This document shows positions 14,872 through 34,993 of a DNA stretch of 34,993 nt, piece after piece; positions within the stretch are counted from its first letter, which is position 1; each line of letters opens with the position of its first letter. The notes beneath the pieces are model-generated. The model did no database searches. It worked only from the letters and a program-made list of their open reading frames with translations, and had not been told where the DNA came from. The translations under genes and the position numbers were made by a program. This DNA comes from an uncultured Thermoplasmata archaeon (GTDB taxonomy: Archaea; Thermoplasmatota; Thermoplasmata; UBA10834): assembly GCA_964407905.1 (NCBI GenBank), contig CAYOXJ010000001.1, positions 25,752-60,744 on the forward strand, written 5' to 3'.

Positions 14872-15348
14872 CTAGATGAACTCGGCCTCTATCTTCCTCA
14901 GAATCTTGGGCAGGGCTTTGGAGACCTCAGGCGTGAGATTCTCGCTGACGTTCGTGACGTCCTCTGCCTCTATTGCGAGGAAGACCACCTCCTTTGGCAT
15001 CTGCTCGGGGATGAGCCTCCTGCCAAGCGCAAGCGCAGTTGCCATGTTTATTCCATGAGGAGAGGACCCGTGAATAGCCTTTTCGAAATCCTTCTCATCC
15101 AGCACGTAGAGCTCACCCGGCCTTCCCTGCTTCGTCTGAATAGCATCTATGATAATGACCCTGTCATATCCTCTGACCACGTCGAGGAGTTCCAGGCCAC
15201 TTGCCGCGAGTTCCTCCACGTTGACCCCGGGAATCTCCTTGTCCCTCAGCCTTCTGGCAACATGGATTCCCACGCCGTCGTCAGATAGGATCGGATTGCC
15301 AACTCCAAGCACTAGGGTCTTCACAGATGTCCGTAGATCATTGGCCAT
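14872..15348 (-). CDS. Hydrogenase maturation endopeptidase (HyaD/HybD/FrhD family)
   Basis: 158 aa. The N-terminus LVLGVGNPILSDDGVGIHVA, the later IIIDA, and the His in GSSPHG are typical of Ni-dependent C-terminal processing proteases. It is the last gene of the mvh cluster. Confidence 0.85.
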   Translation of the reverse strand: MANDLRTSVKTLVLGVGNPILSDDGVGIHVARRLRDKEIPGVNVEELAASGLELLDVVRGYDRVIIIDAIQTKQGRPGELYVLDEKDFEKAIHGSSPHGINMATALALGRRLIPEQMPKEVVFLAIEAEDVTNVSENLTPEVSKALPKILRKIEAEFI

Positions 15349-15386
15349 AATAATCCTGACTCAGCGGTGGCAGGAAAAGCATAGTT

Positions 15387-15402
15387 GGGGGCATGCGCCC
15401 CC
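15387..15402 (-). other. GC-rich hairpin (6-bp G/C stem, 4-nt loop) in the 64-nt spacer between mvhA and the protease gene
   Basis: The plus-strand sequence is GGGGGC-ATGC-GCCCCC. The stem is perfectly complementary. Its function is unknown. Confidence 0.4.
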
Positions 15403-15412
15403 GAGCTGTTGT

Positions 15413-16927
15413 TCAGAAGTTTCTCTGGGCAGTGAGGAGCGAGCCGTCCTTCCGCCTCACGTTGACCTCTAGCGCGGGAGCACCGTTCAAAGCGTGCGTG
15501 CCACACGAGTTGCACGGGTCGTAGCACCTGAAGGCCATCTCGACCTTGTTCAGAAGGCCGGGCGAGATTTCGCCGTTCTTGATCAGAGCCTTCGCTGCCT
15601 GTCTCACGCTCGTGTTTGTCGCAGCGTAGTTGTTGGTCGTCGCCACGATCATGTTAATCTTTGTGCACAGTCCGTTCTTGTCCGCTGCGTAGTGGTGAAT
15701 CAGGGTGCCCCTCGGTGCCTCGCATATGCCCACGCCCTCCTTTGGCTCCTTGAAGGGTCCTCTGATGTCGTCGCTGGTGATGCTCCTGTCGCTCGCGAGT
15801 TCGAGCATCCTCTCGGTCGCATATTGGAGCTCGATCACGCGCGCCCAGTGGAACGCGAGCGTGTGATGGACTGGACCCGTGACTCCGAGGTCCTTCATCG
15901 TCTTCTTGAAGATCTCGTACTCAGCCTGCGCCAGCGGGGTCGTGTACCCCGTGCAGACGTTTATCCTGCCCAGCGGACCAACTCTGTATATGCCGCTGGA
16001 GGCGCCGTCCACGAATCCTTTCCAGCCAACCTTCTTCAGGTATGGCATCTTCATGTAGGTCCAGGGCTCAACATGCTCGGCGATGACGTCCAAGTACTCG
16101 CTGGGCTTAAACTTCACGACCTCCTTGCCAGCCTGATCGACAACGCGTATGTCTCCGTCGTAGAAGTTGGTCTTGTTGTTCTTGTCGACCATGCCCATGT
16201 AGTAGGTCTCGAGGTAGTAGGCATCCTTGTTGAGCACGAAGCCCAGATAGTCCTTGTTGCCCAGCACCACGTCGTGGAACAGCTTGATGGTGAACTTGCC
16301 GAACTCGACGCAGGACTTCGCCATGTCCTCCATCTTCGCGCGCTCCTCCTCACTTATTTGCTTCGAGACGCCTCCGGGCAGGCCGAACACTGGGTGCGTT
16401 GCACGGCCGCCGACGATCTCCTGCACCTTCTGGCCGTAGGACCTGTGCTTGATGACCTCGGCACCTATCGGCACGCCCACGGCATCGACCACGCCCAGAA
16501 CGTTCCTCTTGTTCGAGGGCGCCGACGGGCCGAGCACGAAGTCAGGCGCAGCGAGGGCGTAGAAGTGGGCGATGTGGCTGTGGGTGTACTGCCCCATGTA
16601 GAACAGCTCCCTGAGCTTCTTTGCGGTCTCCGTTGGCGTTGCGTCGAACACCGCGTCCAGCGCCTTCGTCGATGCGATGTGATGTGCGGCTGGACAGACA
16701 CCGCAGAGCCTGTTCGTCAGCACGGGCAACTCCATCACGTGTCTGCCTATACAGAACCTCTCGAATCCCCTCAGCTCTGGGATCTGCAGGTACGCATTCT
16801 CGACGTTCCCTGCATCGTCCAGGAATATCTCGATCTTGCCATGTCCCTCTAGCCTCGTGATGGGGTCAATGGTTATCTTCCTCTCCTTCGTCTTCACTGG
16901 TGTGTCGTTGATAATTGGTCCAGCCAT
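15413..16927 (-). CDS. mvhA: [NiFe] hydrogenase large subunit, Mvh/Vhu-like (group 3c by context)
   Basis: 504 aa. It has RLEGHGKIEI and the N-terminal Ni-Fe ligand motif RLCGVCPAAHH. The C-terminal ligand motif DPCNSCGTH is followed by a 26-aa tail (ALNGAPALEV...), as expected for a protease-cleaved extension. Confidence 0.9.
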   Translation of the reverse strand: MAGPIINDTPVKTKERKITIDPITRLEGHGKIEIFLDDAGNVENAYLQIPELRGFERFCIGRHVMELPVLTNRLCGVCPAAHHIASTKALDAVFDATPTETAKKLRELFYMGQYTHSHIAHFYALAAPDFVLGPSAPSNKRNVLGVVDAVGVPIGAEVIKHRSYGQKVQEIVGGRATHPVFGLPGGVSKQISEEERAKMEDMAKSCVEFGKFTIKLFHDVVLGNKDYLGFVLNKDAYYLETYYMGMVDKNNKTNFYDGDIRVVDQAGKEVVKFKPSEYLDVIAEHVEPWTYMKMPYLKKVGWKGFVDGASSGIYRVGPLGRINVCTGYTTPLAQAEYEIFKKTMKDLGVTGPVHHTLAFHWARVIELQYATERMLELASDRSITSDDIRGPFKEPKEGVGICEAPRGTLIHHYAADKNGLCTKINMIVATTNNYAATNTSVRQAAKALIKNGEISPGLLNKVEMAFRCYDPCNSCGTHALNGAPALEVNVRRKDGSLLTAQRNF

Positions 16928-16931
16928 GTGA

Positions 16932-17948
16932 TCACCCCTTCCTTTTCTTCTTCTCGGTCACAGCCCTCTTCAGCGGGGACTTGGGTAGTGTGAAAGCGTA
17001 GAAGGTCCCAAGCGGGTCTTTGACCTGCATCATCATCTCCATGATCTGTTCCTCACTTAGCTTTGACTCCGAATCCGTGATGTTGAGGAGCGACGACAGT
17101 GCGCTCAGCATGCTAGCGCCCTGGTCGGTCACCGCCTTCGTCGGGCCCATGCAGCCTCTGCACGGCATATTCGCGTTCGGGCACATCGCGCCGCAGCCAG
17201 CCCGCGTCGCCGGGCCGATGCATATTATGCCCTGATCGAGCAAGCACTTCTTCGGGTCGGGCTTGATCTCGTAGGCCTGGTAGATCTTCTCAATCCTCCT
17301 GCCTTTCTCGACCCGCTCCCTCTTGCACTCGTCGCAGAGGGTCTTGTCCGAAGCGATGACCGTCCCCTTCGGCGGAAGAGGCGCTCCCTTCGTCACGTGC
17401 TGTGCCACCGCATCCACGGCCATGGCGATCAGGTTGACCGTGGGCGGGCAACCTGGCATGAAGTAATCGACGTCGACCACCTCGTCGAGCGTCTTGACTG
17501 TGTCGTAGAACTCGGGCAGTTCCAGCTCCCCCTCGGGAACCTTCAGATGCGACTGCGGGGTCACGAAACCTGGATTGTCGGTCGACACGGTATTCTTGTA
17601 GACCGTCTCGAAGACTTCCTTTCTGTTCGTCACGTTCGCTAGCCCGGGCGTCCCGCCGTAGCACGCGCACGAGCCGAAGGCAATCATGACAGCAGACTTC
17701 TCGCGCAGAATCTTGGCCACGTGCTCGTTTTCGGAGTTGCGAATCGCGCCATTGTAGAAGCTCACGGTTATGGACTTGTCCGGCATTGCCTCGATTTCCT
17801 TCAGCTTGCCGTCGAACCCGATCGGCCAGAACACGACCTCTGCGATCGCGTGGACGTCCAGGATCCTCGCATCGATGTCCAAGAGCGCGACGTCGCATCC
17901 TCCGCACCCCGCGCCCCAGTACTGTGCGATCTTGATCTTGTCTGCCAT
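16932..17948 (-). CDS. mvhG: [NiFe] hydrogenase small (Fe-S) subunit, MvhG-like
   Basis: 338 aa. It has the proximal-cluster motif YWGAGCGGCDVALLD, then GSCACYGG and MPGCPP. C-terminal Cys clusters are also present (CDECKRE, CIGPATRAGCGAMCPNANMPCRGC). Confidence 0.85.
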   Translation of the reverse strand: MADKIKIAQYWGAGCGGCDVALLDIDARILDVHAIAEVVFWPIGFDGKLKEIEAMPDKSITVSFYNGAIRNSENEHVAKILREKSAVMIAFGSCACYGGTPGLANVTNRKEVFETVYKNTVSTDNPGFVTPQSHLKVPEGELELPEFYDTVKTLDEVVDVDYFMPGCPPTVNLIAMAVDAVAQHVTKGAPLPPKGTVIASDKTLCDECKRERVEKGRRIEKIYQAYEIKPDPKKCLLDQGIICIGPATRAGCGAMCPNANMPCRGCMGPTKAVTDQGASMLSALSSLLNITDSESKLSEEQIMEMMMQVKDPLGTFYAFTLPKSPLKRAVTEKKKRKG

Positions 17949-17949
17949 C

Positions 17950-18342
17950 TCAGTTCACCTCTACCTTCTCAGGCTGTGCCCTGCTTGGCGCGGCCCTGTA
18001 CTGCGGCGACTGACCCTTCATGCCGACCTGGTCAACCAGCCTCCATCTCTTGAGGGCGATTATGTGCTTCACGATCTCAGGCTTCGGTATGCCTGTGATG
18101 TCGTGCAGCTCGTGAACGGTCCTCGGGCCTTCCTCCATTTCCTGCAGCAAGAGGTTTCTCTCCAGCTCCACGCCTGCGGCCTTCTGCACTATGAAGCTGT
18201 ATCTCGCGTCAGTGATGGCCTCTCCGAAGACGTTTCCCTGTGTCGTCAGCTGGCCCTTCTTTCCCAGAAGCCATCTGACCCTCTCTCCCTCGACTGTTCT
18301 CAGTGCCGCGCGTATCTTGGCCTCCCTGATGGACATCCTCAT
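17950..18342 (-). CDS. Free-standing homologue of the winged-helix-like C-terminal extension that is fused to MvhD in the two upstream modules; function unknown
   Basis: 130 aa, ATGA-coupled to mvhD-d. TQGNVFGEAI and ERNLLLQEMEEGPRTVHELHDITGIPKPEIVKHIIALKRWRLV align by eye with EEGNVYGDKL...ERSLILLLTKNNNMSVKDLSKKMNVPTDRVLEHIVVLRQKNLI in ORF 21838-22602. Confidence 0.6.
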   Translation of the reverse strand: MRMSIREAKIRAALRTVEGERVRWLLGKKGQLTTQGNVFGEAITDARYSFIVQKAAGVELERNLLLQEMEEGPRTVHELHDITGIPKPEIVKHIIALKRWRLVDQVGMKGQSPQYRAAPSRAQPEKVEVN

Positions 18343-18803
18343 TCACCACCTACCATGGGGGACGGTCCAAGTTCCTTAATCGTGTTGGTGAAGGAGATGA
18401 TGGTCTTCTGGAACTTCTCGCCCTCGCCTGCTGATACCCATTCCAGGCGCAGCCTGTCAGGGTCGAATCCGAACTGCTGTATGAGCATCTTCAGCAGCGC
18501 CATCCTCCTGCGGGTCCTGTAGTTGCCGCCTATGTAGTGGCAGTCCGCGGGATGGCAGCCTGCAACGAGGATTCCATCGGCCCCCCTGTTGAACGCCCTC
18601 AGGACGAACTCGGGGTCCACTCTTGCGGAGCACATTACCCTGATCACCCTGAAGTAGGGGGGCATCTGCAGCCTGCTGACCCCAGCAAGGTCGGCGCCTG
18701 CGTACGAGCACCAGTTGCAACAGAACACGAGAATCTTGGGCTCGAACTGCCCGCCTGTCTCCTCGCCCTGGTGCGCGGAAGTGTGCGTCGCCTCGCTGCT
18801 CAT
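18339..18803 (-). CDS. mvhD: MvhD-type [2Fe-2S] iron-sulfur protein (copy d, stand-alone domain)
   Basis: The track ORF extends to 19037 inside hdrA, so I take ATG 18803 (MSSEATHT...), which overlaps the hdrA-d stop (ATGA), giving 154 aa. It has FCCNWCSYAGADLAG, VMCSARVDP and GCHPADCHY, the MvhD/FlpD signature. Confidence 0.85.
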   Translation of the reverse strand: MSSEATHTSAHQGEETGGQFEPKILVFCCNWCSYAGADLAGVSRLQMPPYFRVIRVMCSARVDPEFVLRAFNRGADGILVAGCHPADCHYIGGNYRTRRRMALLKMLIQQFGFDPDRLRLEWVSAGEGEKFQKTIISFTNTIKELGPSPMVGGE

Positions 18804-21800
18804 TGCTTCGCCTCCTGCTTCGGGTTTTCCCCCACGAGCGCAGCATCGATCATCGCGTAGATCTGCTCGTCCCTGTACCCCTTCTGTGTCAGCGCGCCAG
18901 ACGGGCATGCGCCTACACAGGCTCCGCAGCCCTTGCAGAGGCCGACGTTGATCTCGACAAGCTTCTTGTCTTTGTTCTTCTTGTCGGGTACGATCTCCAT
19001 GGCCTTGTACTCGCAGATGGGAACGCATATGCCACATCCGTCGCAGAAGGTCTCGTCGACGCTCGCGACGATGCCCTCAGCCTCGAGCGTCGTCTTCGAC
19101 AGCACGGTGGTCGCCCTCGAGACAGCAGCCAACGCCTGCGCGATGCTCTCGTCGACGAACTTCGGGCCATGCGCGAGACCCGCGAGGTATATGCCCTCCG
19201 TGGCGAAGTCAACCGGCCTGAGCTTCATGTGCGCCTCGAGGAAGAATCCCTCCTTTGTCTGGGGAACTTTGCACATGGGCGCCAGCTCACCGGCATCCTC
19301 CTGAGGCCTCGTGCCTGCAGCGAGGACCAGGTGGTCCGGCTTCAGGACGATCTCCTTGCCAGTGTCCTCGTCGGTCACGCTGACCTCGAGCTTTCCAGCC
19401 TTATCCTCGACACGTGGCTTGACCTTGTCATCAAATCGGACGAATATCACTCCTTTCGAGCCGGCTTCCTTGTAGTACTTCTCTCTGAATCCGTAGGTCC
19501 TGATGTCTCTGTAGAGCACGAAGACCTTCGCGTTGGGGTCCCTCTCCTTGATCTTCATCGCCGCGGTCATCGTGCCAGTGCAGCAGACGCGGGAGCAGTT
19601 CGGATTCTTATCCTCCCTCGAGCCTACGCACTGTATGAACACGTACTCCTTGCCCTTGGCCTCGCCCTTCGCAAGCTTGTCCTTGAGCTCGAGCAGAGTC
19701 ATGACTTTCTTGTTCTTGCCGTAGAGATACTCGCCCTCGGGCTTGTGCTCCTCGCCGCCTATGGCGACGATCACGATACCATGTTCGATCTCCTCGCCCG
19801 TCGTGAGCTTGGTCTTGAAGTTGCCAACATAGCCGTCCAGCGACTTGACCTTCGAGCCAAGGTAGACAGTTATATTCGGGCTCGAGGTGACCTTCTTGTC
19901 GAGCTCTCTCACGTACGCTGCGGGGTCGTCGCCCGATGGCAGGTAGTGAAGCTTCTTTGCATTTCCTCCGAGCTCCTTCTCTCTCTCGACCAGGTGCACT
20001 TTAAAGCCCTGCTTCGCGAGCTCGAGTGCTGCGACCATGCCAGAAACCCCTCCGCCGACTACCAATGCCTGCTGGTTGACGTTCATTGTCAGATTCTGCA
20101 GCGGCTCGAGTAGCCTCGCCTTCGCGACCGCCATCCTGACTAGGTCCTTCGCCTTCTTGGTGGCGGCCTTCGGCTCATGCATGTGTATCCACGAGCACTG
20201 GTCCCTGATGTTTGCCATCTCGAAAAGATAGGCATTGAGGCCCGCTTCTTTGATGGTGTTCTGGAACAGTGGCTCGTGAGTCCTTGGCGTGCAGCTCGCC
20301 ACCACCACCCTGTTCAGCTTCAGCTCCTTGACCTTCTCCTTGATCTTCTCCTGCGTGTCCTGGGAACAGGTGTATAGGTTCTGCTCAGCGTAAGCCACGT
20401 TGGGCAACGTCTTCGCATACTCCATGACCTCTGGAACCTTCACGACGCCGCCGATGTTGATCCCGCAGTGGCAGACGAAGACGCCTATCCTGGGCTCCTG
20501 GCCCTCGACACTCGTCTCGGGCGGGTATTCCTTCTTTGTGACAAGGGTGTTCCTCGCCCCAGCGATCTCGGTGCCGGCCTTCGCAGCTGCACCCGACGCC
20601 TCCGCGACTGTCATCGGGATGTCCTTTGGTGAAGAGAACGCGCCGCTGACGAATACCCCCGGCCTGGTGGTCTCGACCGGCGCGAACACGCTCGTCTGTG
20701 CGAACCCGTCGTCGTTCAGCTTGAACTCCATGATCTTGCTCAGGTTCTCGGCGTCCGCAGGTGGCCTGAGTCCAACGGCCAGGACGACGAGGTTGAACTC
20801 CTCCTCCTTCGGTTCGCCGTTCTCGACGTACTTGAGCTTCAGGTTCTTCGTCCTCGAATCCTCCGAGACGGCAGCGATCCTCGACCTGACGAACTTGATT
20901 CCATACTCGTTCTGTGCTCTGTTGTAGTACTCGTCGAACTCCTTGCCGAAAGCCCTCATGTCCATGAAGAATATTGAGGGCTTGATGTCACCGCCATGCT
21001 CCTTGGCGATGACCGCCTCCTTTATGGAGTACATGCAGCATACGCTCGAGCAGTATTCGTTTCCGCAGTGCTCGTCCCTGGATCCGACGCACTGGATGAA
21101 CGCGACCTTCTCCGGTATGTCGCCATCGGAAGGCCTCAGAACAGTGCCCATGTACGGTCCCGTGGCCGAGAGCATCCTCTCGAACTCGATGCTCGTGACG
21201 ACGTTCTTGTACACGCCATACCCGTACTCTGTCTTCAGCCGCGCATTGAACTCGTCGAAGCCTGGGGAGACGATGACAGAGCCGACCTTGATCTCAAGCA
21301 CCTTCTCCTTCTGGTCGTATTCCACAGCCTTCGCCTTGCACTCCTCAGCACATATCCCGCAGCCGATGCACTTGTCCGGGTCGATCGAGTAGACCAACGG
21401 AACGGCCTGCGGGTATCTCACGTAGATCGCCTTCCTCACCTTGGTGTTCTCGTCGAACTCGTTGGACGCTTCGATCGGACATTTCTGCGCACAGCTGCCG
21501 CAGCCAGTACACTTCTTCGGGTCCACTCTGAAGGCATGCTGCTTCACTATCACGCTGAAGTTGCCCGCCTCACCGTCGAGCTTCGCGATCTCTGCGTTTG
21601 TTATCAGCTCGATGTTGTGGTGCCTGCCCGTCGCGACCAGCTTCGGAGCCATGATGCACATGGCGCAGTCGTTGGTGGGGAAGGTCTTGTCGAGCTGTGC
21701 CATCACTCCGCCTATGCTCGGCTGCTTCTCGACCAGGTACACCCTGTATCCGGAGTCAGCAAGATCGAGAGCGGACTGCATCCCTGAGATGCCGCCGCCG

Positions 21801-21838
21801 ACGACCATGACCGCTCCGATCTTGTCGGTCGCTGCCAT
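18800..21838 (-). CDS. hdrA: Double-module HdrA-like flavoprotein, copy d (about 1012 aa)
   Basis: N-module (aa 1 to ~430): VVGGGISGM, DKTFPTNDCAMC, an inserted 2x[4Fe-4S] ferredoxin (CTGCGSCAQKCP, CIGCGICAEEC) and CVGSRD..YCSSVCC. C-module (aa ~450 to end): HdrA N-domain RIGVFVCHCGINIGG..ASCTPRTH, a second VVGGGVSGM, CVGSRED..CSRVCC, and a C-terminal 2x[4Fe-4S] (CDGCGICVPIC, CKGCGACVGACP). The start is ATG 21838 or GTG 21841, both overlapping the upstream TGA. Confidence 0.9.
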   Translation of the reverse strand: MAATDKIGAVMVVGGGISGMQSALDLADSGYRVYLVEKQPSIGGVMAQLDKTFPTNDCAMCIMAPKLVATGRHHNIELITNAEIAKLDGEAGNFSVIVKQHAFRVDPKKCTGCGSCAQKCPIEASNEFDENTKVRKAIYVRYPQAVPLVYSIDPDKCIGCGICAEECKAKAVEYDQKEKVLEIKVGSVIVSPGFDEFNARLKTEYGYGVYKNVVTSIEFERMLSATGPYMGTVLRPSDGDIPEKVAFIQCVGSRDEHCGNEYCSSVCCMYSIKEAVIAKEHGGDIKPSIFFMDMRAFGKEFDEYYNRAQNEYGIKFVRSRIAAVSEDSRTKNLKLKYVENGEPKEEEFNLVVLAVGLRPPADAENLSKIMEFKLNDDGFAQTSVFAPVETTRPGVFVSGAFSSPKDIPMTVAEASGAAAKAGTEIAGARNTLVTKKEYPPETSVEGQEPRIGVFVCHCGINIGGVVKVPEVMEYAKTLPNVAYAEQNLYTCSQDTQEKIKEKVKELKLNRVVVASCTPRTHEPLFQNTIKEAGLNAYLFEMANIRDQCSWIHMHEPKAATKKAKDLVRMAVAKARLLEPLQNLTMNVNQQALVVGGGVSGMVAALELAKQGFKVHLVEREKELGGNAKKLHYLPSGDDPAAYVRELDKKVTSSPNITVYLGSKVKSLDGYVGNFKTKLTTGEEIEHGIVIVAIGGEEHKPEGEYLYGKNKKVMTLLELKDKLAKGEAKGKEYVFIQCVGSREDKNPNCSRVCCTGTMTAAMKIKERDPNAKVFVLYRDIRTYGFREKYYKEAGSKGVIFVRFDDKVKPRVEDKAGKLEVSVTDEDTGKEIVLKPDHLVLAAGTRPQEDAGELAPMCKVPQTKEGFFLEAHMKLRPVDFATEGIYLAGLAHGPKFVDESIAQALAAVSRATTVLSKTTLEAEGIVASVDETFCDGCGICVPICEYKAMEIVPDKKNKDKKLVEINVGLCKGCGACVGACPSGALTQKGYRDEQIYAMIDAALVGENPKQEAKQ

Positions 21839-22602
21839 CACTGCTCACCCCCGATCTCTATCGTTCGGTATGTCGGTGTGAACCCCTCTGGGTGGTCCAT
21901 GGCTATGAGATTCTTCTGCCTCAGGACGACTATGTGCTCCAGCACTCGATCCGTTGGAACATTCATCTTCTTCGAGAGGTCCTTCACGGACATGTTGTTG
22001 TTCTTCGTAAGCAGAAGGATCAATGATCTCTCGAATTCCTGCTTTGTGGCATTGTATATGATGTCCAGAAGCTTCTCCTTGCCTAGTTTGTCCCCGTAGA
22101 CATTTCCCTCTTCGACAATCTTCAGCTCATTGCTCACAAGGGCCCTCAATCTGAAATCGCTGAGGGCATTGCGTACTGCCACCAAGCCATTCATTATCTT
22201 GCCCGCGTTGCTTGGGCCCAGTTTCTCGAGTTCTCCTGTGAAGTCTCTGATGAGATCGGCGAATCGTTGTCCTTCAGAAGCACTCACCCACTCAAGCCGC
22301 ACTCGCCGTGGGTCAGAACCTGCGAGCTCAAGGATCCTCTTTGCGAGGCCAATCTTGCAATCAGCCTGGAGGTTGCCGGTCAGATAATGGCAGTCTCCGG
22401 GATGGCATCCTCCGACGAGGACACCATCTGCGCCCTGAATCAGAGCTTCAACTATGAGGACAGGATCAACCCTGCCTGAGCACATCACGCGAATTGTCCT
22501 GATGTTCGGCGGGTACTGGAACCTCGAGACTCCAGCCAGATCCGCACCTGCATAGCTGCACCAGTTGCAGAGAAAGCCCACAATGCGTGGTTCGAAGGCC
22601 AT
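21838..22602 (-). CDS. mvhD: MvhD-type [2Fe-2S] protein fused to a ~115-aa winged-helix-like C-terminal extension (copy c)
   Basis: 254 aa. The N-terminus has FLCNWCSYAGADLAG, VMCSGRVDP and GCHPGDCHY. The C-terminus has MSVKDLSKKMNVPTDRVLEHIVVLRQKNLIAMD, an HTH/wing-like pattern. Its start abuts the hdrA-c stop. Confidence 0.85.
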   Translation of the reverse strand: MAFEPRIVGFLCNWCSYAGADLAGVSRFQYPPNIRTIRVMCSGRVDPVLIVEALIQGADGVLVGGCHPGDCHYLTGNLQADCKIGLAKRILELAGSDPRRVRLEWVSASEGQRFADLIRDFTGELEKLGPSNAGKIMNGLVAVRNALSDFRLRALVSNELKIVEEGNVYGDKLGKEKLLDIIYNATKQEFERSLILLLTKNNNMSVKDLSKKMNVPTDRVLEHIVVLRQKNLIAMDHPEGFTPTYRTIEIGGEQ

Positions 22603-25636: not shown

Positions 25637-26425
25637 TCACGCACCTCCTATCCCAAAGCTCTGTGCGCTCCGGTAGAGGGGCGTTGCGCCTTCTATGCGA
25701 GAGAGCCTCACCAAATCGCGATCCTTGAGCGTCACAATATGCTGCAAGATCTTTGTTGCGGGCAGATTCAGAGTTGCTGCAAGTTCTTTCACAGAAACTG
25801 GCCTATCAGATGCGGCGAGCAATATCTCTATTCGCGCAAATTCGTCATCCATTACTGAGTCGAGCAATGCATCCAGTTCCTCTTCGGGTATCTTCTTTCC
25901 GAAGACATTCCCCTTCTCGGAGAACTCGACATATTTGCCGAGCAGAGACCGAATCCTGACGTCTTCGACAACATTTTTCGCTGCGAACAGAAGCCTGAGT
26001 TTCTTGATGTCAGGATGTTCACCACTCACTGGACTTGGACCGAGCTCAGAGATCTGCTTTGTGAACTCCGTCATGAGCTTTGCAAAACGTTCTCCTTCTG
26101 ATGCACTCACCCATTCGAGCCTCAAGCGCTCCGGCTCGAAGCCGCATTTTGCCAGAAGTCTCCTGGCGACCTTCATGCGCTGCTGCGCGAAATAGTTGCC
26201 CTTGATGTAGTGGCAGTCGCCAATATGACATCCGCCAACAAACACACCGTCCGCGCCCTGAATGAACATTTCTAGGACGATGTCCGGGTCAACGCGTGCG
26301 CTGCACATGACCTTGACAATTCTTATTTCTGGCGGATATTGGTACCTGCTCACTCCAGCGAGATCCGCGCCAGCATAGCTGCACCAATTGCACATGAAAC
26401 CTATGAGTTTCGGTTCGAAGGGCAT
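25637..26425 (-). CDS. mvhD: MvhD-type [2Fe-2S] protein fused to a winged-helix-like C-terminal extension (copy b)
   Basis: 262 aa. It has FMCNWCSYAGADLAG, VMCSARVDP and GCHIGDCHY. The C-terminus has EKGNVFGKKI...VSVKELAATLNLPATKILQHIVTLKDRDLVRL. Confidence 0.85.
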   Translation of the reverse strand: MPFEPKLIGFMCNWCSYAGADLAGVSRYQYPPEIRIVKVMCSARVDPDIVLEMFIQGADGVFVGGCHIGDCHYIKGNYFAQQRMKVARRLLAKCGFEPERLRLEWVSASEGERFAKLMTEFTKQISELGPSPVSGEHPDIKKLRLLFAAKNVVEDVRIRSLLGKYVEFSEKGNVFGKKIPEEELDALLDSVMDDEFARIEILLAASDRPVSVKELAATLNLPATKILQHIVTLKDRDLVRLSRIEGATPLYRSAQSFGIGGA

Positions 26426-26429
26426 CTTT

Positions 26430-26702
26430 CTACCTCCCTATTGTGCCTGACATGAGCCCACGCACGCAGAGCATGAAATTGCACTCGTCGGTCAGTCTTC
26501 GTTCGCAAGTGTGACAGCGCAACGCGATGAGGAGGTTCCTCAGTATCAGACTCTTTGTCTCAGCATCTACATTGGGCAGCGAGGTCTCTGCCATCTCCAA
26601 GCTCTCATGCTGGACTCTCCCCCAACGCGGCAGAGTTGAGAAGTGTTTCTTGAACAGCCAAGCGGTCCTTATTGCGTTCACCTCGTCCTTCTCGTTCTTC
26701 AC
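26430..26702 (-). CDS. Hypothetical 90-aa protein with a C-terminal CxxC...C-x5-C motif (coding status uncertain)
   Basis: The ORF exactly fills the space between hdrA-b(C) and mvhD-b. Its GTG start forms a GTGA overlap with the hdrA-b(C) stop, and it ends 4 nt before the mvhD-b ATG. It contains RCHTCERRLTDECNFMLC. I recognise no homologue. Confidence 0.4.
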   Translation of the reverse strand: MKNEKDEVNAIRTAWLFKKHFSTLPRWGRVQHESLEMAETSLPNVDAETKSLILRNLLIALRCHTCERRLTDECNFMLCVRGLMSGTIGR

Positions 26703-28582: not shown

Positions 28583-29893
28583 TCACGCCCCTCCCGCCTG
28601 GGCAGTGGCCTGTGCCATGACCTCAACCGCCTTTGCGGCAGCGCTCGAGCCCTGGGCGACGCTTTCTGGTATGTCCGCTGGTCCTGCGCAGTAGCCGGCC
28701 AAGTACATGCCGGGGACGACGGTCCTGCCGAAGTCAAGTATCCTGTCGGTTGATTCCAGGAATCCGAATTCGTCGGTCTTCAGTCCCAGGATCTTGGCAA
28801 GCTCCAATGTCTCCTTTCTCGGGACGAGAGTGGTCGCGAGGACTACCATGTCGAACTCCTCGGACTGTTGCCTCCCGCCCACGTCGAACACAACAATCGG
28901 GTTATGGGTTTCGGGGTTCTCCTGAACGGTAGCGTCTGAGTTGATGTATCTCACACCGTAGTCGCGCTTGGCCCTTTCGATGTACTCGTAGAATCCCTTG
29001 GCGCACGCTCGCATGTCCTTGTAGAAGATGGTCGACTCCATGTCGTCGTGGTGCTCGCGTGCCAACATTGACTCCTTGGTGGAGTGCATGCAGCACACCG
29101 AACAGCAGTACGGATGTCCAACCTGCGGGTTTCTCGAGCCCACGCACTGGATGAACGCCATCTTCATGGGTCTCTTCTTGTCTGATCTGCGCTCGATGTG
29201 TCCATGGGTCGGGCCCGCGGCATTGATCATCCGCTCGTATTCCATCGCCGTGAAGACGTTCGGGTACTTGCCGTACCCGTACTCCGTCGACGAGGAGGGG
29301 TCCCAGACGTCATAGCCAGTTGCGACTATTATCGCGCCGACCTCGATCTCCAGCATCTGGTCCTTCATCTCGTAGTCGATCGCCTCTCTCTTGCAGGCCT
29401 TCTTGCAGTTCCCGCACTTGCCCTTGGTGAACATGATGCAGTTCTCTTTGTCGATCGTCATGACTCTGGGCACTGCCTGCATGAAGGGCATGTATATCGC
29501 CTTCCTGTTGGCGAGCCCCATCTCGAACTCGTTCGGGACCTTGCTCGGGCACTTCTCGAGGCATTCTCCGCAGCCAGTGCATTTCGTCTCGTCCACGAAC
29601 CTGGCCTTCTTAAGCACCTTGACTCTGAATCCGCCAGCCTTCCCCTCGACTCCGACCGCCTCCGCGTATGTGATGACGTTTGTGTTTGGGTGGCTGAAGC
29701 AGTCCGCCATCTTCGGTGCCAGAATGCATATCGAACAGTCGTTCGTCGGGAACGTCTTGTCCAGCTGTGCCATTCGTCCGCCGATGCTGGGCGTCTTCTC
29801 GATTAAGTGGACTATTATTCCCTTGTCAGCGAGGTCAAGGGCCGCCTGTATCCCAGCGACTCCTCCCCCGATCACCATCACAGACCTCTCCAT
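28583..29893 (-). CDS. hdrA: HdrA-like flavoprotein, copy b N-module as a separate gene (436 aa)
   Basis: VIGGGVAGIQAALDLADKG, DKTFPTNDCSICILAPKM, an inserted ferredoxin-like region (CTGCGECLEKCP, then the divergent CIMFTKGKCGNCKKAC) and CVGSRNPQVGHPYCCSVCC. It ends at the position that is the inter-module linker in the fused copies. AAGGAGG lies upstream of the ATG. Confidence 0.9.
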   Translation of the reverse strand: MERSVMVIGGGVAGIQAALDLADKGIIVHLIEKTPSIGGRMAQLDKTFPTNDCSICILAPKMADCFSHPNTNVITYAEAVGVEGKAGGFRVKVLKKARFVDETKCTGCGECLEKCPSKVPNEFEMGLANRKAIYMPFMQAVPRVMTIDKENCIMFTKGKCGNCKKACKREAIDYEMKDQMLEIEVGAIIVATGYDVWDPSSSTEYGYGKYPNVFTAMEYERMINAAGPTHGHIERRSDKKRPMKMAFIQCVGSRNPQVGHPYCCSVCCMHSTKESMLAREHHDDMESTIFYKDMRACAKGFYEYIERAKRDYGVRYINSDATVQENPETHNPIVVFDVGGRQQSEEFDMVVLATTLVPRKETLELAKILGLKTDEFGFLESTDRILDFGRTVVPGMYLAGYCAGPADIPESVAQGSSAAAKAVEVMAQATAQAGGA

Positions 29894-30014: not shown

Positions 30015-30392
30015 TCACTTCGCGAGTAGGCTCTGCACCTCCTTTCCCTTCTCGATTTCCGTGACCTTCACTTTGAACGGCGCCTTCTTCTTCTGCACCT
30101 CTCTTGCGAACCTCTGGCAGTTCGGATAGGTACATGGGGAGCACTTCTTGTCCTTGCAGGAGAGCTCGATCAGGACCAAACGCTCTCTCGTGTCCTGAGG
30201 CTTCGTCATCGGCTTCTTGATCTCGAACGTCTTCGTCATTCGGGTCTCGAAAGGCACCTTCTTGGGGACCGTTCTGACAAATCTCTGGCAGTTAGGATAG
30301 GTGCACGGGGAGCACTTCCGGTCTTTGCACGAGAGCTCGACCAGGAGATACCTATCCACTTCTCCCTCCGTTTTCTGTGCTTGCGGGTTCAT
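30015..30392 (-). CDS. Small basic protein made of two tandem ~57-aa repeats, each with a C-x4-C-x2-C-x4-C motif; function unknown
   Basis: 125 aa. Repeat 1 is LLVELSCKDRKCSPCTYPNCQRFVRTVPKKVPFE. Repeat 2 is LVLIELSCKDKKCSPCTYPNCQRFAREVQKKKAPFK. GGAG lies 8 nt upstream of the ATG. It starts 18 nt downstream of the mvhD-hdrCB stop. Confidence 0.65.
   Translation of the reverse strand: MNPQAQKTEGEVDRYLLVELSCKDRKCSPCTYPNCQRFVRTVPKKVPFETRMTKTFEIKKPMTKPQDTRERLVLIELSCKDKKCSPCTYPNCQRFAREVQKKKAPFKVKVTEIEKGKEVQSLLAK
30112..30175 (-). repeat. Intragenic direct repeat, unit 2 (encodes the second Cys4 motif)
   Basis: This 64-nt block matches 30283-30346 at about 56 of 64 positions in my hand alignment. 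The offset is 171 nt, which is 57 codons. Confidence 0.8.
30283..30346 (-). repeat. Intragenic direct repeat, unit 1 (encodes the first Cys4 motif)
   Basis: See 30112-30175. CTCTGGCAGTTAGGATAGGTGCACGGGGAGCACTTCCGGTCTTTGCACGAGAGCTCGACCAGGA aligns with CTCTGGCAGTTCGGATAGGTACATGGGGAGCACTTCTTGTCCTTGCAGGAGAGCTCGATCAGGA. Confidence 0.8.
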
Positions 30393-30410
30393 AGTATTTC
30401 TCCGTACTGC

Positions 30411-32012
30411 TCATTCGAGCGCTTCTGCGACGACCACGCTCAGGTCCTTGATCGGGATCTCGATCTGCTCCTTTGGCGTCTGCGTCTTGTTGTTCACGAT
30501 GGCACAGCTCAGGTGTATCAGGCACTTGTAGCAGCCTGTCACGAGACATCCCGCGCCGGACTTCTTGGCCTCTTTGAGCCTCTCGACCTGGAGCTTCCGG
30601 GATATCTCATCGCAGGTGGCCCACGCGCTGACGCCGCAGCACACAGCCTTGTCCCTCGTGTTCTCCATCTCCACTAGCTGCGTGCCCTCGACAGCCTTCA
30701 GAGCATTCCTGGGCGCGTCGAAGATGCCAAGGTGTCTGCCCAGCCTGCATGAATCCTGAAAGGTGAATTTCCCGGTGCCCTTCTTGAACCTCAGCTTGCC
30801 CTCTTGCACGAGATCGTCGATCAGTTCTGAAATATGCATCATCTCGAAGTCGAAGTCCCCCATGAAGTCCTGGTAGTCCAAGTTGAAAGTGCGCATGCAC
30901 TCAGGGCACGAGAACACGACCTTCTTCGCGCCCGAAGCCTTTATGAGCTCGACATTCTTCTTCATCAGTTTCTGAAGGCTGGCCTCGTCGCCTATCCAGT
31001 TGAGGTCATGTCCGCAGCATACTTCGTCGTTGCTGACGACCGGGACAATGCCCGCCCTGTTCATAATCTTTACTGCAGCCTGGGGTATGCCAGCGAGTTT
31101 GAGATCTTCCCTGTCCTTGAATATTGAATCGTAATAGGATACGCAGCCCGTGAAGTAGAAGACATCGCCCTTGTCGGATATCTTGAGCTCGGGCGTCATC
31201 CAGCCGATGCGGTTCTGCTTCAGTTTGCTGTTCGCCTGGATGCGCATGACCGCTTGGATGATACCTCCCTGAGAACAAACGGCCTCATTCCCCAACGCAG
31301 AGGCCTCGGCTCTCATGCCCCTGATGAAGCCCGAGTAATCGACCTTGTAGGGACACATCGCGTTGCACTGTTCACAGGTCACGCAGGTCCAAACATCGCG
31401 ATTCGTCGCGACATTGTCAACGATGCCCTCCATGGCCTTGAGCACGATTGTCCTCGGGGCGAAGTTCGGGTTGTATTTCGCGACTGGGCACACGGTAGTG
31501 CACTTGCCGCACTCGACACAGTCGAACGCACCAGTGTCTTCAATCAGCTGGTCAATCTTCTTCTTCAGGTTGGCGGGATTGCTCTTTCTCGACTGCGCCC
31601 TTGGGAGCGGATTCGGTCCGATGACCCGGATCTGCTCAGTGAACTCCCTCATTGTGGCAGCGAACTTCTGCCCCTCCGAGGCGGATATCCATTCGAGCCT
31701 CATGCGGTTCCTGCCGAGGCCTAGTTTGTCCAAGACTTCCATCGTAGAGGCCATTCGCTTCTCGGCCTCGACATTCCCCTTGACGTAGTGACAGTCCCCT
31801 ATGTGACAGCCGGCGACAAGAACGCCATCCGCTCCAAGTTCGAGCGCCTTCAGGACGAAGTACGGTTCCACGCGGCCCGAGCACATGACTCTGATGATCC
31901 TCGCATTGGCAGGATACTGCATCCTGGAGACGCCCGCGAGGTCTGCACCTGCGTATGAGCACCAGTTGCAGCAGAAGGCGACTATGTTCGGCTCGAACTT
32001 CGCGTCCGTCAT
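30411..32012 (-). CDS. Triple fusion MvhD-HdrC-HdrB (MvhD [2Fe-2S] domain + 2x[4Fe-4S] ferredoxin + two CCG domains)
   Basis: 533 aa. The MvhD part has FCCNWCSYAGADLAG, VMCSGRVEP and GCHIGDCHY. The HdrC-like part has CVECGKCTTVCP and CVTCEQCNAMCP. The HdrB-like CCG motifs are GCVSYYD...EVCCGHD...SCPECM and DSCRLGRH...AVCCGVS...GCYKCL. The ATG overlaps the hdrA-a stop (ATGA). Confidence 0.85.
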   Translation of the reverse strand: MTDAKFEPNIVAFCCNWCSYAGADLAGVSRMQYPANARIIRVMCSGRVEPYFVLKALELGADGVLVAGCHIGDCHYVKGNVEAEKRMASTMEVLDKLGLGRNRMRLEWISASEGQKFAATMREFTEQIRVIGPNPLPRAQSRKSNPANLKKKIDQLIEDTGAFDCVECGKCTTVCPVAKYNPNFAPRTIVLKAMEGIVDNVATNRDVWTCVTCEQCNAMCPYKVDYSGFIRGMRAEASALGNEAVCSQGGIIQAVMRIQANSKLKQNRIGWMTPELKISDKGDVFYFTGCVSYYDSIFKDREDLKLAGIPQAAVKIMNRAGIVPVVSNDEVCCGHDLNWIGDEASLQKLMKKNVELIKASGAKKVVFSCPECMRTFNLDYQDFMGDFDFEMMHISELIDDLVQEGKLRFKKGTGKFTFQDSCRLGRHLGIFDAPRNALKAVEGTQLVEMENTRDKAVCCGVSAWATCDEISRKLQVERLKEAKKSGAGCLVTGCYKCLIHLSCAIVNNKTQTPKEQIEIPIKDLSVVVAEALE

Positions 32013-34993
32013 GCCTTGGCTTCCTCCTGCTCAAGCTCCTTCCTGAGCGCAGCTTCTATCATCGTGAGTATCTGTTCTGTCTTGAAGTGCTTCGGCCTTA
32101 TCGCGCGGGAGCAGCAAGCGACTGCACATGATCCGCAGCCCTTGCAGAGAGCCTCGTTGATCTTCGACTTGAACACCCCTGGAGCGACCTCCTCGACCCG
32201 TGGCGCTCCGTACTCGCAGATCTCCTCACACCTGCCGCAGGCGATGCACTTCTCCTCGTCGACGACGCTCACGACGCCCTCGGCCTCGATGAAGGATTTC
32301 GACAGAACCGTGTTCACCCTTGCGGCTGCCGCAAGTGCCTGCGAGATGCTCTCGTCGATAAGCCTCGGCGAGTGCGCCAGTCCGCAGAGGAATATGCCAT
32401 CCGTGGCGAAGTCAATCGGCCTTAGCTTCATGTGCGCCTCGAGGAAGAACCCCTCCTTCGTCAGAGGCACCTTCAGCAACTTGGCCAGCTCACTGTTGTC
32501 TGGGTTTGGGTGCACCGCAGCGTTCAGGACCAGGTAGTCTGTCTTGATCTTGACGGGCTGTTCGATGAACTGTTCCTCGACTTCAACCATCACATGGTTG
32601 TGGTCCGCAGTCACCTTTGGCGGGGACGCGGGATCATATCTCAGGAATGTCACTCCAAGCCTCGCGGCCTCGTTGTAGTGTTCCTCTGCAAACCCATAGG
32701 TCCTGATGTCTCTGTAAAGCACGAACACGTTGGTGTTCGGATGCTCCGTCTTGATCTTGACTGCGTTGGCCATCGCTGTAGAGCAGCAGATTCGGGAGCA
32801 GCTCGGGTGCTCCTCGTTCCTGGAGCCAACACACTGTATGAACACGACGTTGTTGGCCTCGAACTTACCATCGTGCAAGAGCATTCCGAGGTCTGTCTGC
32901 TTGATGACCTTCGGGTGCTTTCCGTGCAAGTATTCGGTCGGGCTGTACTCGATCGCGCCTGTGGCCACAACAATGGCACCGTGCTTGATTTTCTCGCCGC
33001 TCTTGAGTGTCGTCTCGAAGTTGCCGATGTAGCCCTTGAGCTCCGCAACCTGGTCAGAAAGATGGATTTTGACATTCTTGTGATCTTCGAGGTCCTTCTT
33101 CAGTCTCTTGAGAGTGTCCTGCGGATCAACGCCAGCAAGGGTATGGTAGATGTTCTTGAGATGTCCACCAAGATCTCCGTCCTTGTCGACCAAATGCACT
33201 TCATAGCCAGCCTTTGCGATCTCCAGAGCGGCTGACATGCCGCTCAGCCCACCTCCGATCACAAGCGCGGACGGTGTCACAGGTATCTTTGGCTGAGGCA
33301 GGGGCTCGAGCATCGCGGCCTTCGCCACGGCCATGCGCACGAGGTCCTTCGACTTCTCTGTCGCCCTCTCGGGCTCCAGCCTATGCACCCACGAGCATTG
33401 ATCTCTGATGTTGGCCATCTCGAAGAGGTACTTGTTCAGGCCAGCCTCCCTTACTGTGTTCTGGAACAGGGGCTCGTGGGTCCTAGGAGTGCAGCTCGCG
33501 ACCACGACCCTGTTGAGGTCGTGCTTCTCGATCATCTCCTTGATCTTCTTCTGAGTGTCCTGTGAGCACGTGTACAGATTCCTCTCAGTGTACACCACGC
33601 GGGGAAGCTTTGAGGCGTACTCGACGACCTCTGGGACGTTCACAACTGCACCTATGTTTATGCCGCAGTGGCAGACGAACACGCCTATCCTCGGCTCCTT
33701 CTTGGAGACGTCCTTCTCCTCTGGATACTCCTTCTTCGTGACGAGCTTCCCGCGCTCCTCCGAGAGAAGAGCAGCGACCTTTCCGGCCGCTCCGCTGGCC
33801 TGCGCCACCGAGTCCGGGATATCCTTCGGGCCAGAGAATGCCCCGCAAACGAAAATCCCTGGCACCGAAGAATCCACGGGCGTCAGATCGTCCGTCTCGC
33901 AGAAACCAAACTTGTTGAGCTTGATTCCGAGGGTCCTGGCCATCGCCTCGGCGCTCGCAGGTGGCCTCGCTCCCGCAGAGAGGATGACCATGTCGAAGGT
34001 CTCCTCTAGGATTTCTGGACCCGAGTGATAGATGAGAACGAGCTCGTTGGTCTTGGGGTCCTCTTGGACCTTCGGGACCCTATTGTTCCTGCGAATGGTG
34101 ACGCCGTACTCGTTCTCTGCCCTGTTAAGGTACTCCTCGAACTCCTTTCCGAAGGCACGCGTGTCCATGAAGAATATGGTGGCCTTCAGACCAGGGACGT
34201 GCTCCTGGGCTATGACTGCCTGCTTCAGTGCAGCCATGCAGCAGTATGACGAGCAGTATGTGTTCGGCGTCTGAGCGTCCCTGGAACCGACGCACTGGAC
34301 GAAGGCGATCTTCCTTGGCACGTCGCCATCCGATGGCCTTATCACATGTCCTTCAGTCGGTCCAGAAGCACTCAACATCCGTTCGAACTCGATGTTTGTG
34401 AGAACGTTCGGGAACACGCCATGGCCGTACTCGACCTTCTTGGCAGCGTCGTAAACCTCGTATCCCGGGCTTATTATAATCGCGCCGACCTCGATGACCT
34501 CTTCCTTGTCAGGCTCCATGCTGTACTGGATTGCCTTGGCCTCGCAGAACTTCTCACAGACTCCGCAGCCGATGCAAAGGCCACGGTCTATCGTGTAGAT
34601 CAAAGGCACTGCCTGGGGGAAGGGCACATAGATCGCCTTGCTCGGAGCCATGTCCCTGTCAAATACGTTCGTTCCTTCGATGGGACAGTGCTCTGCGCAC
34701 ACTCCGCAGCCCGTGCACTTGTCCTCGAGGATGTACCTCGAGCGCCTTGAGAGCGTGACCTTGAAGTTGCCTGCCTCGCCCTCCACCTTCTTGAGTTCGG
34801 CATGGGTCAACATCGTGATGTTCTCGTGCCTGCCGGTCGCAACGAGCTTGGGCGAGAGAATGCACATGGAGCAGTCGTTGGTGGGGAAGGTCTTGTCGAG
34901 CTGGGCCATCGTCCCTCCGATGCTCGCTCCGGCCTCGAGGATGTAGACCTTGAACCCGGAGTCCGCGAGGTCCAGCGCAGCTTGCATTCCCGC
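32009..34993 (-). CDS. hdrA: Double-module HdrA-like flavoprotein, copy a (N-terminus truncated by the window edge)
   Basis: The frame is open to the window end (..AGMQAALDLADSG lies inside the Rossmann motif). It has DKTFPTNDCSMC, CTGCGVCAEHCP/CIGCGVCEKFC, RIGVFVCHCGINIGA, VIGGGLSGM, CVGSRNEEHPSCSRICC and CIACGRCEEIC/CKGCGSCAVACC. Confidence 0.9.
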   Translation of the reverse strand, partial: AGMQAALDLADSGFKVYILEAGASIGGTMAQLDKTFPTNDCSMCILSPKLVATGRHENITMLTHAELKKVEGEAGNFKVTLSRRSRYILEDKCTGCGVCAEHCPIEGTNVFDRDMAPSKAIYVPFPQAVPLIYTIDRGLCIGCGVCEKFCEAKAIQYSMEPDKEEVIEVGAIIISPGYEVYDAAKKVEYGHGVFPNVLTNIEFERMLSASGPTEGHVIRPSDGDVPRKIAFVQCVGSRDAQTPNTYCSSYCCMAALKQAVIAQEHVPGLKATIFFMDTRAFGKEFEEYLNRAENEYGVTIRRNNRVPKVQEDPKTNELVLIYHSGPEILEETFDMVILSAGARPPASAEAMARTLGIKLNKFGFCETDDLTPVDSSVPGIFVCGAFSGPKDIPDSVAQASGAAGKVAALLSEERGKLVTKKEYPEEKDVSKKEPRIGVFVCHCGINIGAVVNVPEVVEYASKLPRVVYTERNLYTCSQDTQKKIKEMIEKHDLNRVVVASCTPRTHEPLFQNTVREAGLNKYLFEMANIRDQCSWVHRLEPERATEKSKDLVRMAVAKAAMLEPLPQPKIPVTPSALVIGGGLSGMSAALEIAKAGYEVHLVDKDGDLGGHLKNIYHTLAGVDPQDTLKRLKKDLEDHKNVKIHLSDQVAELKGYIGNFETTLKSGEKIKHGAIVVATGAIEYSPTEYLHGKHPKVIKQTDLGMLLHDGKFEANNVVFIQCVGSRNEEHPSCSRICCSTAMANAVKIKTEHPNTNVFVLYRDIRTYGFAEEHYNEAARLGVTFLRYDPASPPKVTADHNHVMVEVEEQFIEQPVKIKTDYLVLNAAVHPNPDNSELAKLLKVPLTKEGFFLEAHMKLRPIDFATDGIFLCGLAHSPRLIDESISQALAAAARVNTVLSKSFIEAEGVVSVVDEEKCIACGRCEEICEYGAPRVEEVAPGVFKSKINEALCKGCGSCAVACCSRAIRPKHFKTEQILTMIEAALRKELEQEEAKA

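Follow-up and report, generated by a model that had tools for sequence, protein, structure and literature searches.

A tandem Cys4 mini-protein encoded in the Hdr/Mvh gene clusters of Thermoplasmata archaea, a candidate metal-binding accessory subunit

Electron-bifurcating complexes of the Hdr/Mvh type occur widely among non-methanogens, where the identity of their substrate is a long-standing question. It is raised again by a stretch of 34,993 nucleotides (nt) from an uncultured Thermoplasmata archaeon (assembly GCA_964407905.1, contig CAYOXJ010000001.1, positions 25,752 to 60,744), hereafter called the window, in which a gene for a Cys-rich mini-protein of 125 amino acids (aa) stands between an MvhD-HdrC-HdrB fusion gene and the N-terminal part of a split HdrA gene. 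A first-pass annotation, made from the sequence alone, had reported an internally duplicated Cys4 mini-protein at positions 30015-30392 and had proposed that it is either a dithiol/disulfide substrate of the Hdr complex or a metal-binding subunit. The duplicated protein proved to be genuine and conserved, and its gene lies on the minus strand, which had not been stated. Our tentative preference, held at a little under an even chance, is that the mini-protein serves the HdrA/MvhD-HdrCB module as an accessory subunit or electron relay and carries a Cys4 metal centre, probably of iron (Fe) or iron-sulfur (Fe-S) type.

The order UBA10834, which corresponds to Ca. Gimiplasmatales, has been described as non-methanogenic, close to the Methanomassiliicoccales and without methyl-CoM reductase (MCR), with a Wood-Ljungdahl pathway, a non-pyrrolysine MttB, HdrA-D, MvhAGD and an "unknown heterodisulphide". 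This description agrees with the earlier remark that nothing in the window indicates CoM-S-S-CoB metabolism. The host lineage is without MCR, and the substrate of its Hdr is termed unknown in the literature.

A conserved gene for a duplicated Cys4 unit

The mini-protein gene is real and under coding constraint. Its ATG codon is preceded at 7 nt by a GGAG Shine-Dalgarno sequence, which lies within the 18 nt that separate the ATG from the stop codon of the MvhD-HdrC-HdrB gene. When the gene was compared at the nucleotide level with 7 close orthologues, the differences at codon positions 1, 2 and 3 numbered 86, 80 and 316, and the codon changes comprised 262 synonymous and 131 non-synonymous ones. 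All eight Cys were retained in 42 of 42 aligned sequences (the window and 41 orthologues), with switching between TGC and TGT. The product has a mass of 14.6 kDa and an isoelectric point (pI) of 9.6, and contains 20 Lys, 9 Arg and 8 Cys. An RNA element or a gene on the opposite strand was rejected, as no Rfam family matched either strand of the gene and both the codon periodicity and the family conservation fit the minus-strand frame. A bacterial-type promoter and terminator scan, which is of little value for an archaeon, found no terminator.

No homologue had been recognised in the first-pass annotation; a search of 5.8 billion proteins returned 221, all of them labelled "hypothetical protein", and those with an organism name all came from Thermoplasmata-type archaea. 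Exactly two C-x4-C-x2-C-x4-C motifs were present in 120 of 120 homologues among the matches listed. When 1.84 billion representative proteins were searched exhaustively with an HMMER profile, only 29 clusters were obtained at E<=1e-3, and a search with a profile of the single unit (5.8 billion proteins) gave 110 proteins of 43-103 aa, without a Pfam domain or fusion partner. Neither the full-profile nor the unit-profile searches revealed domain fusions of the "Rosetta stone" kind, all matches being 43-151 aa long with no second domain.

In species-representative genomes the family was found at 69 loci, all in metagenome-assembled genomes (MAGs) of Thermoplasmata/Methanomassiliicoccales except for one contig labelled "Candidatus Paceibacterota bacterium" (L070). 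As the 149-aa open reading frame (ORF) of this contig is only two or three residues away from that of a Thermoplasmatota contig (L066), it is probably a mis-binned archaeal contig. The closest genomes were RBG_19FT_COMBO_56_21, RBG_13_57_23, UBA10834 and UBA9653. Some members occur in MAGs labelled Methanomassiliicoccaceae, and these hosts may be methanogens. The searchable literature yielded no description of the mini-protein or of its exact C-x4-C-x2-C-x4-C spacing. Judging from these searches, the family is a previously undescribed one of small proteins, confined to Thermoplasmata related to the Methanomassiliicoccales.

The protein consists of two units of ~57 aa, which align locally with a BLOSUM62 score of 164 and share the motif (L/V)xELSCKD(R/K)KCSPCTYPNCQRF. 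The distance between the two Cys cores is 57 residues in the window protein and in 107 of 121 family members. The DNA of the cores (30112-30175 against 30283-30346) is identical at 56 of 64 positions (87.5%), compared with 35 of 64 for the best self-match of this length in 300 shuffles of the ORF, and identity falls to 33-50% in the flanks. The earlier figure of ~87% with diverged flanks was therefore accurate. Two explanations had been offered for it, constraint on the core or gene conversion, of which the first is upheld by the codon data and the invariant Cys. Gene conversion between the repeats was rejected. The tails group by position across genomes (unit-1 type PFETRMTKMFEVKKP, unit-2 type PFKVKVTEIEKG), with mean tail scores of 63 and 64 for the same position across genomes and 38 for unit 1 against unit 2 within a genome. 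Where core residues were identical, the codon was also the same in a fraction of 0.64 within genomes, barely above the 0.575 between genomes. Because of this grouping and these codon fractions, the alignments indicate that the duplication of the unit is old and has been kept by selection, with no need for gene conversion, and that the high identity of the core DNA is the product of near-invariant residues and a shared codon bias.

The pattern E-x2-C-x4(5)-C-x-P-C-x-Y-P-x-C was invariant in all 47-61 diverged units, which included both Hdr-linked and Hdr-independent members. Eight positions of the unit are thus invariant (the Glu, four Cys, two Pro and the Tyr), and a Thr, a Gln and an Arg are nearly so. 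The spacing Cys2-x2-Cys3-x4-Cys4 is constant, while Cys1 and Cys2 are separated by 4 residues, or by 5 in some of the stand-alone proteins. A rigid loop with four conserved ligands is suggestive of a metal site, and C-x4-C-x2-C-x4-C would be a new Cys4 motif among candidate metal-binding mini-domains.

Gene contexts of the family

The mini-protein gene is the last of a transcription unit headed by the "long HdrA" gene at the end of the window. Between 18800 and 34987 the minus strand carries one split copy of the long HdrA (436 + 625 aa) and three fused ones of ~1013 aa, in which a full HdrA is joined to an HdrA flavoprotein part; the gene after each of them, fused or split, encodes an MvhD domain. 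The fused and split layout of the long HdrA recalls a QmoA/QmoB-like pairing. The MvhD-HdrC-HdrB fusion just upstream of the mini-protein contains two CxxCxxCxxxCP motifs and two complete CCG domains. The setting is unusual in being a supercluster of several long HdrA and MvhD paralogues together with MvhAG.

Conservation and co-occurrence in relatives were looked for and both were found, including in diverged and single-unit members. Among informative type-A loci in species-representative genomes, an HdrC-HdrB gene stood directly upstream on the same strand in 43 of 45, at a distance of -22 to about +30 nt in most loci and 250 nt at the maximum. The HdrA N-part stood directly downstream in 43 of 44, at 70-91% identity. 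The same slot is held by a 68%-identical relative of the mini-protein, by a ~45%-identical two-unit relative that follows an unfused HdrCB and overlaps hdrCB by 8 nt (L009), and by single-unit proteins of 70-82 aa. There were two exceptions. L047 lacks the HdrCB gene but keeps the small gene, which there lies between two HdrA genes, and at L049 a second paralogue has no Hdr neighbours. The coupling to the HdrB gene that had been noted in the window therefore extends to most loci, but the gene is linked to the HdrA/HdrCB module, not to HdrB by itself, since it is kept without HdrCB at L047. Similarly, HdrB is encoded only once inside the window, as had been said, but in syntenic relatives the first long HdrA is closely preceded by a separate HdrC+HdrB+MvhD set, in a region that lies just past the end of the window. 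By its position in the operon and its close coupling, the gene looks like that of a subunit of an HdrABC-type complex.

These data also bear on the possibility that the mini-protein is a nucleic-acid-binding zinc-finger regulator, a basic Cys4 micro-protein that would control the expression of the hdr/mvh cluster. It is small, very basic and Lys-rich (pI 9.6), stand-alone paralogues of ~50 aa are scattered over other loci, and the cluster does contain fusions of redox and helix-turn-helix (HTH) domains. However, a coupled gene inside a row of structural genes, which sometimes overlaps hdrCB, is what would be expected of a subunit, and no DNA- or RNA-binding family was matched in Pfam or NCBIfam, nor by the diverged units. 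We regard a regulatory role as very improbable.

Many genomes of the family also encode a single unit of ~50 aa, of the type WNxxYExIE[TS]SC...CxPCTYPNCQR...AFGK. Hdr neighbours were found at 0 of 22 loci of this stand-alone unit. In 18-20 of 21 loci it follows NifS-NifU-PyrD-PyrK and is convergent with an HMGL-like synthase gene. One stand-alone unit directly precedes genes for TusA, a DsrE-like protein, a cysteine desulfurase and NifU, another lies between NifU and an HdrC-like gene, another is upstream of ThiI, and one more is in an uninformative context. The NifS-NifU-PyrD-PyrK-linked units are at L059-L080, L006-L008 and L087, and the other contexts are among L083, L085 and L084. Since these neighbourhoods may share ancestry, they are no more than suggestive of sulfur mobilisation and Fe-S assembly as the second recurring context of the family. 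Paralogues beside Fe-S assembly genes would suit a protein that handles Fe or Fe-S. Several of the stand-alone paralogues have no ATG start in the extracted ORFs, and ORFs of ~50 aa such as these may often escape genome annotation.

Metal centre or protein-borne substrate

In the role that we tentatively favour, each unit of ~50 aa would consist of a helix ending in E-L-S-C, a rigid C-x-P-C-x-Y-P-x-C loop and a second helix, so that the four Cys could bind one metal centre, most likely of iron or iron-sulfur, followed by a basic tail that is expected to be disordered in isolation. The Hdr-linked form, with one or two units, would be translated together with MvhD-HdrC-HdrB and act as an accessory subunit of the flavin-based electron-bifurcating module of long HdrA and MvhD-HdrCB. 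Every unit could contribute a single redox or metal centre that serves as an electron relay or a dedicated mini-carrier, and the basic tails would dock onto the large subunits. We infer metal binding, the identity of the metal, the association with the complex and electron transfer alike. The AlphaFold model of the single unit, with a mean predicted local distance difference test score (pLDDT) of 65 overall and 70-75 over residues 1-40, has a helix at 2-15, the Cys loop at 16-26, a helix at 27-35 and a low-confidence basic tail; it places the Cys in the loop and where the helices end.

The only signal in Pfam and NCBIfam came from PF04060, the [4Fe-4S] domain of RnfB/RsxB and of the corrinoid Fe-S protein (CFeSP). 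With hmmscan the full protein scored 22.2 bits, below the gathering threshold of 23, and NCBIfam gave weak RnfB matches for it. The PF04060 signal derives from unit 2 of the window protein only, which alone scored 18.6 bits, and a precomputed PF04060 match was present in 4 of 120 homologues among the matches listed. A genuine RsxB/RnfB alignment was built from E. coli RsxB, and hhalign comparison of two family alignments with it gave probabilities of 35.7% and 38.1% (P 3-4e-4) over only 19-24 columns. Both the mini-protein and PF04060 have a C-x2-C-x-Y-P-x-C-x2-[FY]-A loop followed by a predicted helix, and the stretch of PF04060 that aligns with the loop of the mini-protein holds three of the cluster ligands. 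The mini-protein is free-standing and in tandem, whereas PF04060 forms the N-terminus of a larger Fe-S protein. Against membership of PF04060 stand a score below the gathering threshold and a C-x2-C-x4-C triad that is invariant but has no downstream Cys. As far as the profiles go, the likeness is limited to the motif of the cluster-binding loop and does not establish membership.

Several observations weigh against a subunit with an Fe-S centre. The resemblance to PF04060 is short and sub-threshold, and of 47 diverged units just one had a match at E<=0.01. In the mini-protein the fourth Cys stands 4-5 residues upstream, in PF04060 ~16 residues downstream. Neither the sequence nor the fold searches of the PDB retrieved RnfB or CFeSP, and the full-length AlphaFold model was uninformative (pLDDT 34.7). 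A Cys4 span of 14 residues would also suit zinc (Zn), as in zinc-knuckle-like sites, and the strongly basic protein is unlike the typical acidic ferredoxins. Finally, gene adjacency is as compatible with a substrate as it is with a subunit.

The span of the site can be compared with those of known metal proteins. Endonuclease III binds a [4Fe-4S] cluster through C-x6-C-x2-C-x5-C, and the retroviral zinc knuckle is C-x2-C-x4-H-x4-C. In both of these, as in the mini-protein, four ligands fall within 14-17 residues, and such a spacing can hold either a cubane or Zn; the order and spacing in the mini-protein (4-2-4) differ from both and there is no detectable homology. It could be that each Cys4 unit binds Zn(II) for folding only, with no redox role. 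The mini-protein would then be a structural clamp whose basic tails staple together the subunits of the multi-HdrA/MvhD-HdrCB assembly, the two units bridging two equivalent sites. This would be in keeping with four invariant Cys within 14 residues at a rigid, Pro-rich spacing, with a small basic protein whose tails are predicted at low confidence, and with a tight, subunit-like synteny in which one or two units are interchangeable in the slot. There is also no robust homology with any Fe-S family. Profile and sequence searches of the PDB with the full-length protein and the unit returned nothing or chance-level matches (E 0.5-1), which were to zinc fingers, and Foldseek found no match in the PDB for the unit model.

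On the other hand, each unit has a single CxxC knuckle, unlike zinc ribbons and rubredoxins, and no Pfam zinc-finger family reached its threshold. The match to the RnfB Fe-S loop and the paralogues adjacent to NifS and NifU point more to Fe and sulfur, and for these two reasons we judge Fe or Fe-S likelier than Zn. A purely structural zinc role is rather unlikely in our estimate.

Known families with comparable Cys motifs were rejected as assignments. For a 2x[4Fe-4S] ferredoxin or polyferredoxin, CxxCxxCxxxCP is absent and there was no Fer4-type Pfam match. For a zinc ribbon or rubredoxin, two knuckles would be needed in place of the one CxxC per unit, and no such Pfam family was above threshold. 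The earlier statement that the spacing belongs neither to CxxCxxCxxxCP ferredoxins nor to classical zinc ribbons thus holds in Pfam, in scans of the unit and in the PDB. A thioredoxin-fold oxidoreductase does not fit either, as C-S-P-C is present but the unit has ~50 aa, against at least ~80 aa for a thioredoxin fold, and a predicted helix-loop-helix, with no family match in Pfam or NCBIfam.

Dedicated electron carriers encoded in operons are known, for example the MvhB polyferredoxin of mvh operons and Fdx of isc operons. By analogy, MvhB and the mini-protein are both small modules of repeated Cys clusters within an mvh/hdr cluster, for which a role as private relay or acceptor is plausible. 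They differ in that the mini-protein has no CxxCxxCxxxCP and no Fer4 domain, has one Cys4 site per ~57-aa unit, and is basic rather than acidic.

The other half of the original proposal was that the mini-protein is itself what HdrB reduces. Its Cys, for example those of C-x-P-C, would cycle between dithiol and disulfide or carry a persulfide or polysulfide, and the non-cubane clusters of the neighbouring HdrB would reduce or process them in place of CoM-S-S-CoB, by analogy with DsrC for DsrK and with TusA-DsrE-LbpA for sHdr. In favour of such a substrate, the host order is without MCR, both CCG domains of HdrB are complete, the gene nearly always adjoins hdrCB, and C-x-P-C is a motif of the thioredoxin/ResA type. 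A paralogue also lies next to TusA, DsrE-like, cysteine desulfurase and NifU genes, and another next to ThiI. DsrC, which is the substrate of DsrK, and TusA, DsrE and LbpA, which feed sHdr, are likewise small proteins linked to an Hdr-type catalytic subunit in hosts without CoM-S-S-CoB, and sulfur-transferase cascades that feed Hdr-like complexes are established (PMC11094781).

However, the known carriers and protein substrates of Hdr-type enzymes use one or two Cys on a flexible arm, whereas the mini-protein has four Cys that, like the Pro, Tyr and Pro between them, never vary and form part of the core, also in the Hdr-independent paralogues. The idea of a substrate is weakened by this invariance and by the persistence of the gene without HdrCB at L047. 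In sequence the mini-protein resembles neither DsrC, TusA and DsrE nor lipoate-binding proteins, and it has no lipoyl-lysine motif. DsrC/TusE was rejected, with no match in Pfam or NCBIfam and a Lys-rich C-terminus without Cys, and the same databases gave no signal for thioredoxin, TusA, DsrE, rhodanese or lipoyl/lipoate-binding families. The occurrence of the family in Methanomassiliicoccaceae-labelled MAGs, whose hosts are possible methanogens, also speaks against a substrate.

Of the two original proposals, metal binding is therefore the favoured one, because the invariant Cys, Pro, Tyr and Glu fit a four-ligand site better than a two-Cys redox pair; the proposal of a substrate gains a little from the paralogues adjacent to TusA, DsrE, NifS and NifU. 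We consider a protein-borne sulfur or disulfide substrate to be quite unlikely. The broader suggestion, that in MCR-less Thermoplasmata HdrB has its missing physiological partner in the mini-protein, as a carrier of a protein-borne disulfide, persulfide or Fe-S-linked sulfur, we hold to be distinctly improbable. A substrate would nevertheless be the most consequential outcome, as it would mean that H2-driven flavin-based bifurcation acts on a protein instead of CoM-S-S-CoB, and the paralogues adjacent to NifS, NifU, TusA and DsrE would then link the same module to sulfur mobilisation. Whether for an added redox subunit, a private electron carrier or a protein substrate, the mini-protein is a compact and easily expressed candidate.

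Features of the window and other genes

The positions of the mini-protein, its units and its partners are collected in Table 1.

Table 1. Features of the mini-protein gene and the surrounding Hdr/Mvh cluster (positions in the window)
Feature	Position	Strand	Basis
Tandem Cys4 mini-protein gene	30015..30392	minus	ATG-to-stop ORF and translation, homologues, codon constraint
Ribosome-binding site GGAG	30400..30403	minus	junction sequence
Unit 1, residues 13-61, DRYLLVELSC...PFETRMTKTFEIKKP	30210..30356	minus	internal repeat alignment, tail grouping
Cys core 1, C22-x4-C27-x2-C30-x4-C35	30288..30329	minus	invariant columns in three alignments
Unit 2, residues 70-119, ERLVLIELSC...PFKVKVTEIEKGKEV	30036..30185	minus	internal repeat alignment, tail grouping, AlphaFold unit model
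Cys core 2, C79-x4-C84-x2-C87-x4-C92	30117..30158	minus	sole stretch giving sub-threshold PF04060 match
MvhD-HdrC-HdrB fusion, 533 aa, upstream partner	30411..32012	minus	Pfam FlpD, Fer4_8, CCG; motif inspection
Split long HdrA, N-part, 436 aa, downstream partner	28583..29893	minus	NCBIfam HdrA2 residues 139-565
Split long HdrA, C-part, 625 aa	26699..28576	minus	Pfam/NCBIfam and synteny in relatives
Long HdrA, at least 992 aa, cut by window end	32009..34987	minus	same order in relatives L001-L005, L088
MvhA, MvhG, HycI	14872-17948	minus	Pfam/NCBIfam

A second small Cys-rich ORF is present in the cluster (26430-26702, minus strand, 90 aa, GTG start). It takes up all of the 273 nt that separate the split HdrA C-part from a gene for an MvhD-HTH fusion, and contains the motif RC-x2-C-ERRL-x2-EC-x4-C-x-RGL. 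It has no Pfam family. Orthologues were found by tblastn in L012 (88%), L017, L082, L088, L053 and L050, and there is no copy in L001-type relatives. The neighbouring 262-aa fusion (25637-26425, minus strand) joins an MvhD domain of the [2Fe-2S]-type FlpD to an ArsR/HTH_20 winged helix and is kept in relatives, with lengths of 263 aa in L001 and of 262 aa in L082, there with PF12840. The fusion may act as a redox-sensing regulator, or its HTH may have been reused independently of DNA.

Two further MvhD genes are on the minus strand. The 232-aa ORF at 18339-19037 overlaps the end of the preceding long HdrA (18800-21841), and translation therefore probably starts further downstream, for a product of ~150 aa like that of L001. 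The 254-aa protein encoded at 21838-22602 has a C-terminal part of ~125 aa without a Pfam match.

Outside the Hdr/Mvh genes, two adjacent ORFs of ~218 aa on the plus strand (11772-12428 and 12410-13069) matched no Pfam family at E<=1e-4. The plus strand also encodes a NikR-like nickel regulator (1692-2087) and a 1282-aa multi-PAS/GAF histidine kinase with a receiver domain (7838-11686). An MttB-superfamily methyltransferase is encoded on the minus strand (3159-4589); its gene has no in-frame stop and the enzyme is hence of the non-pyrrolysine type, which fits the prediction that the genus is a methylotrophic acetogen.

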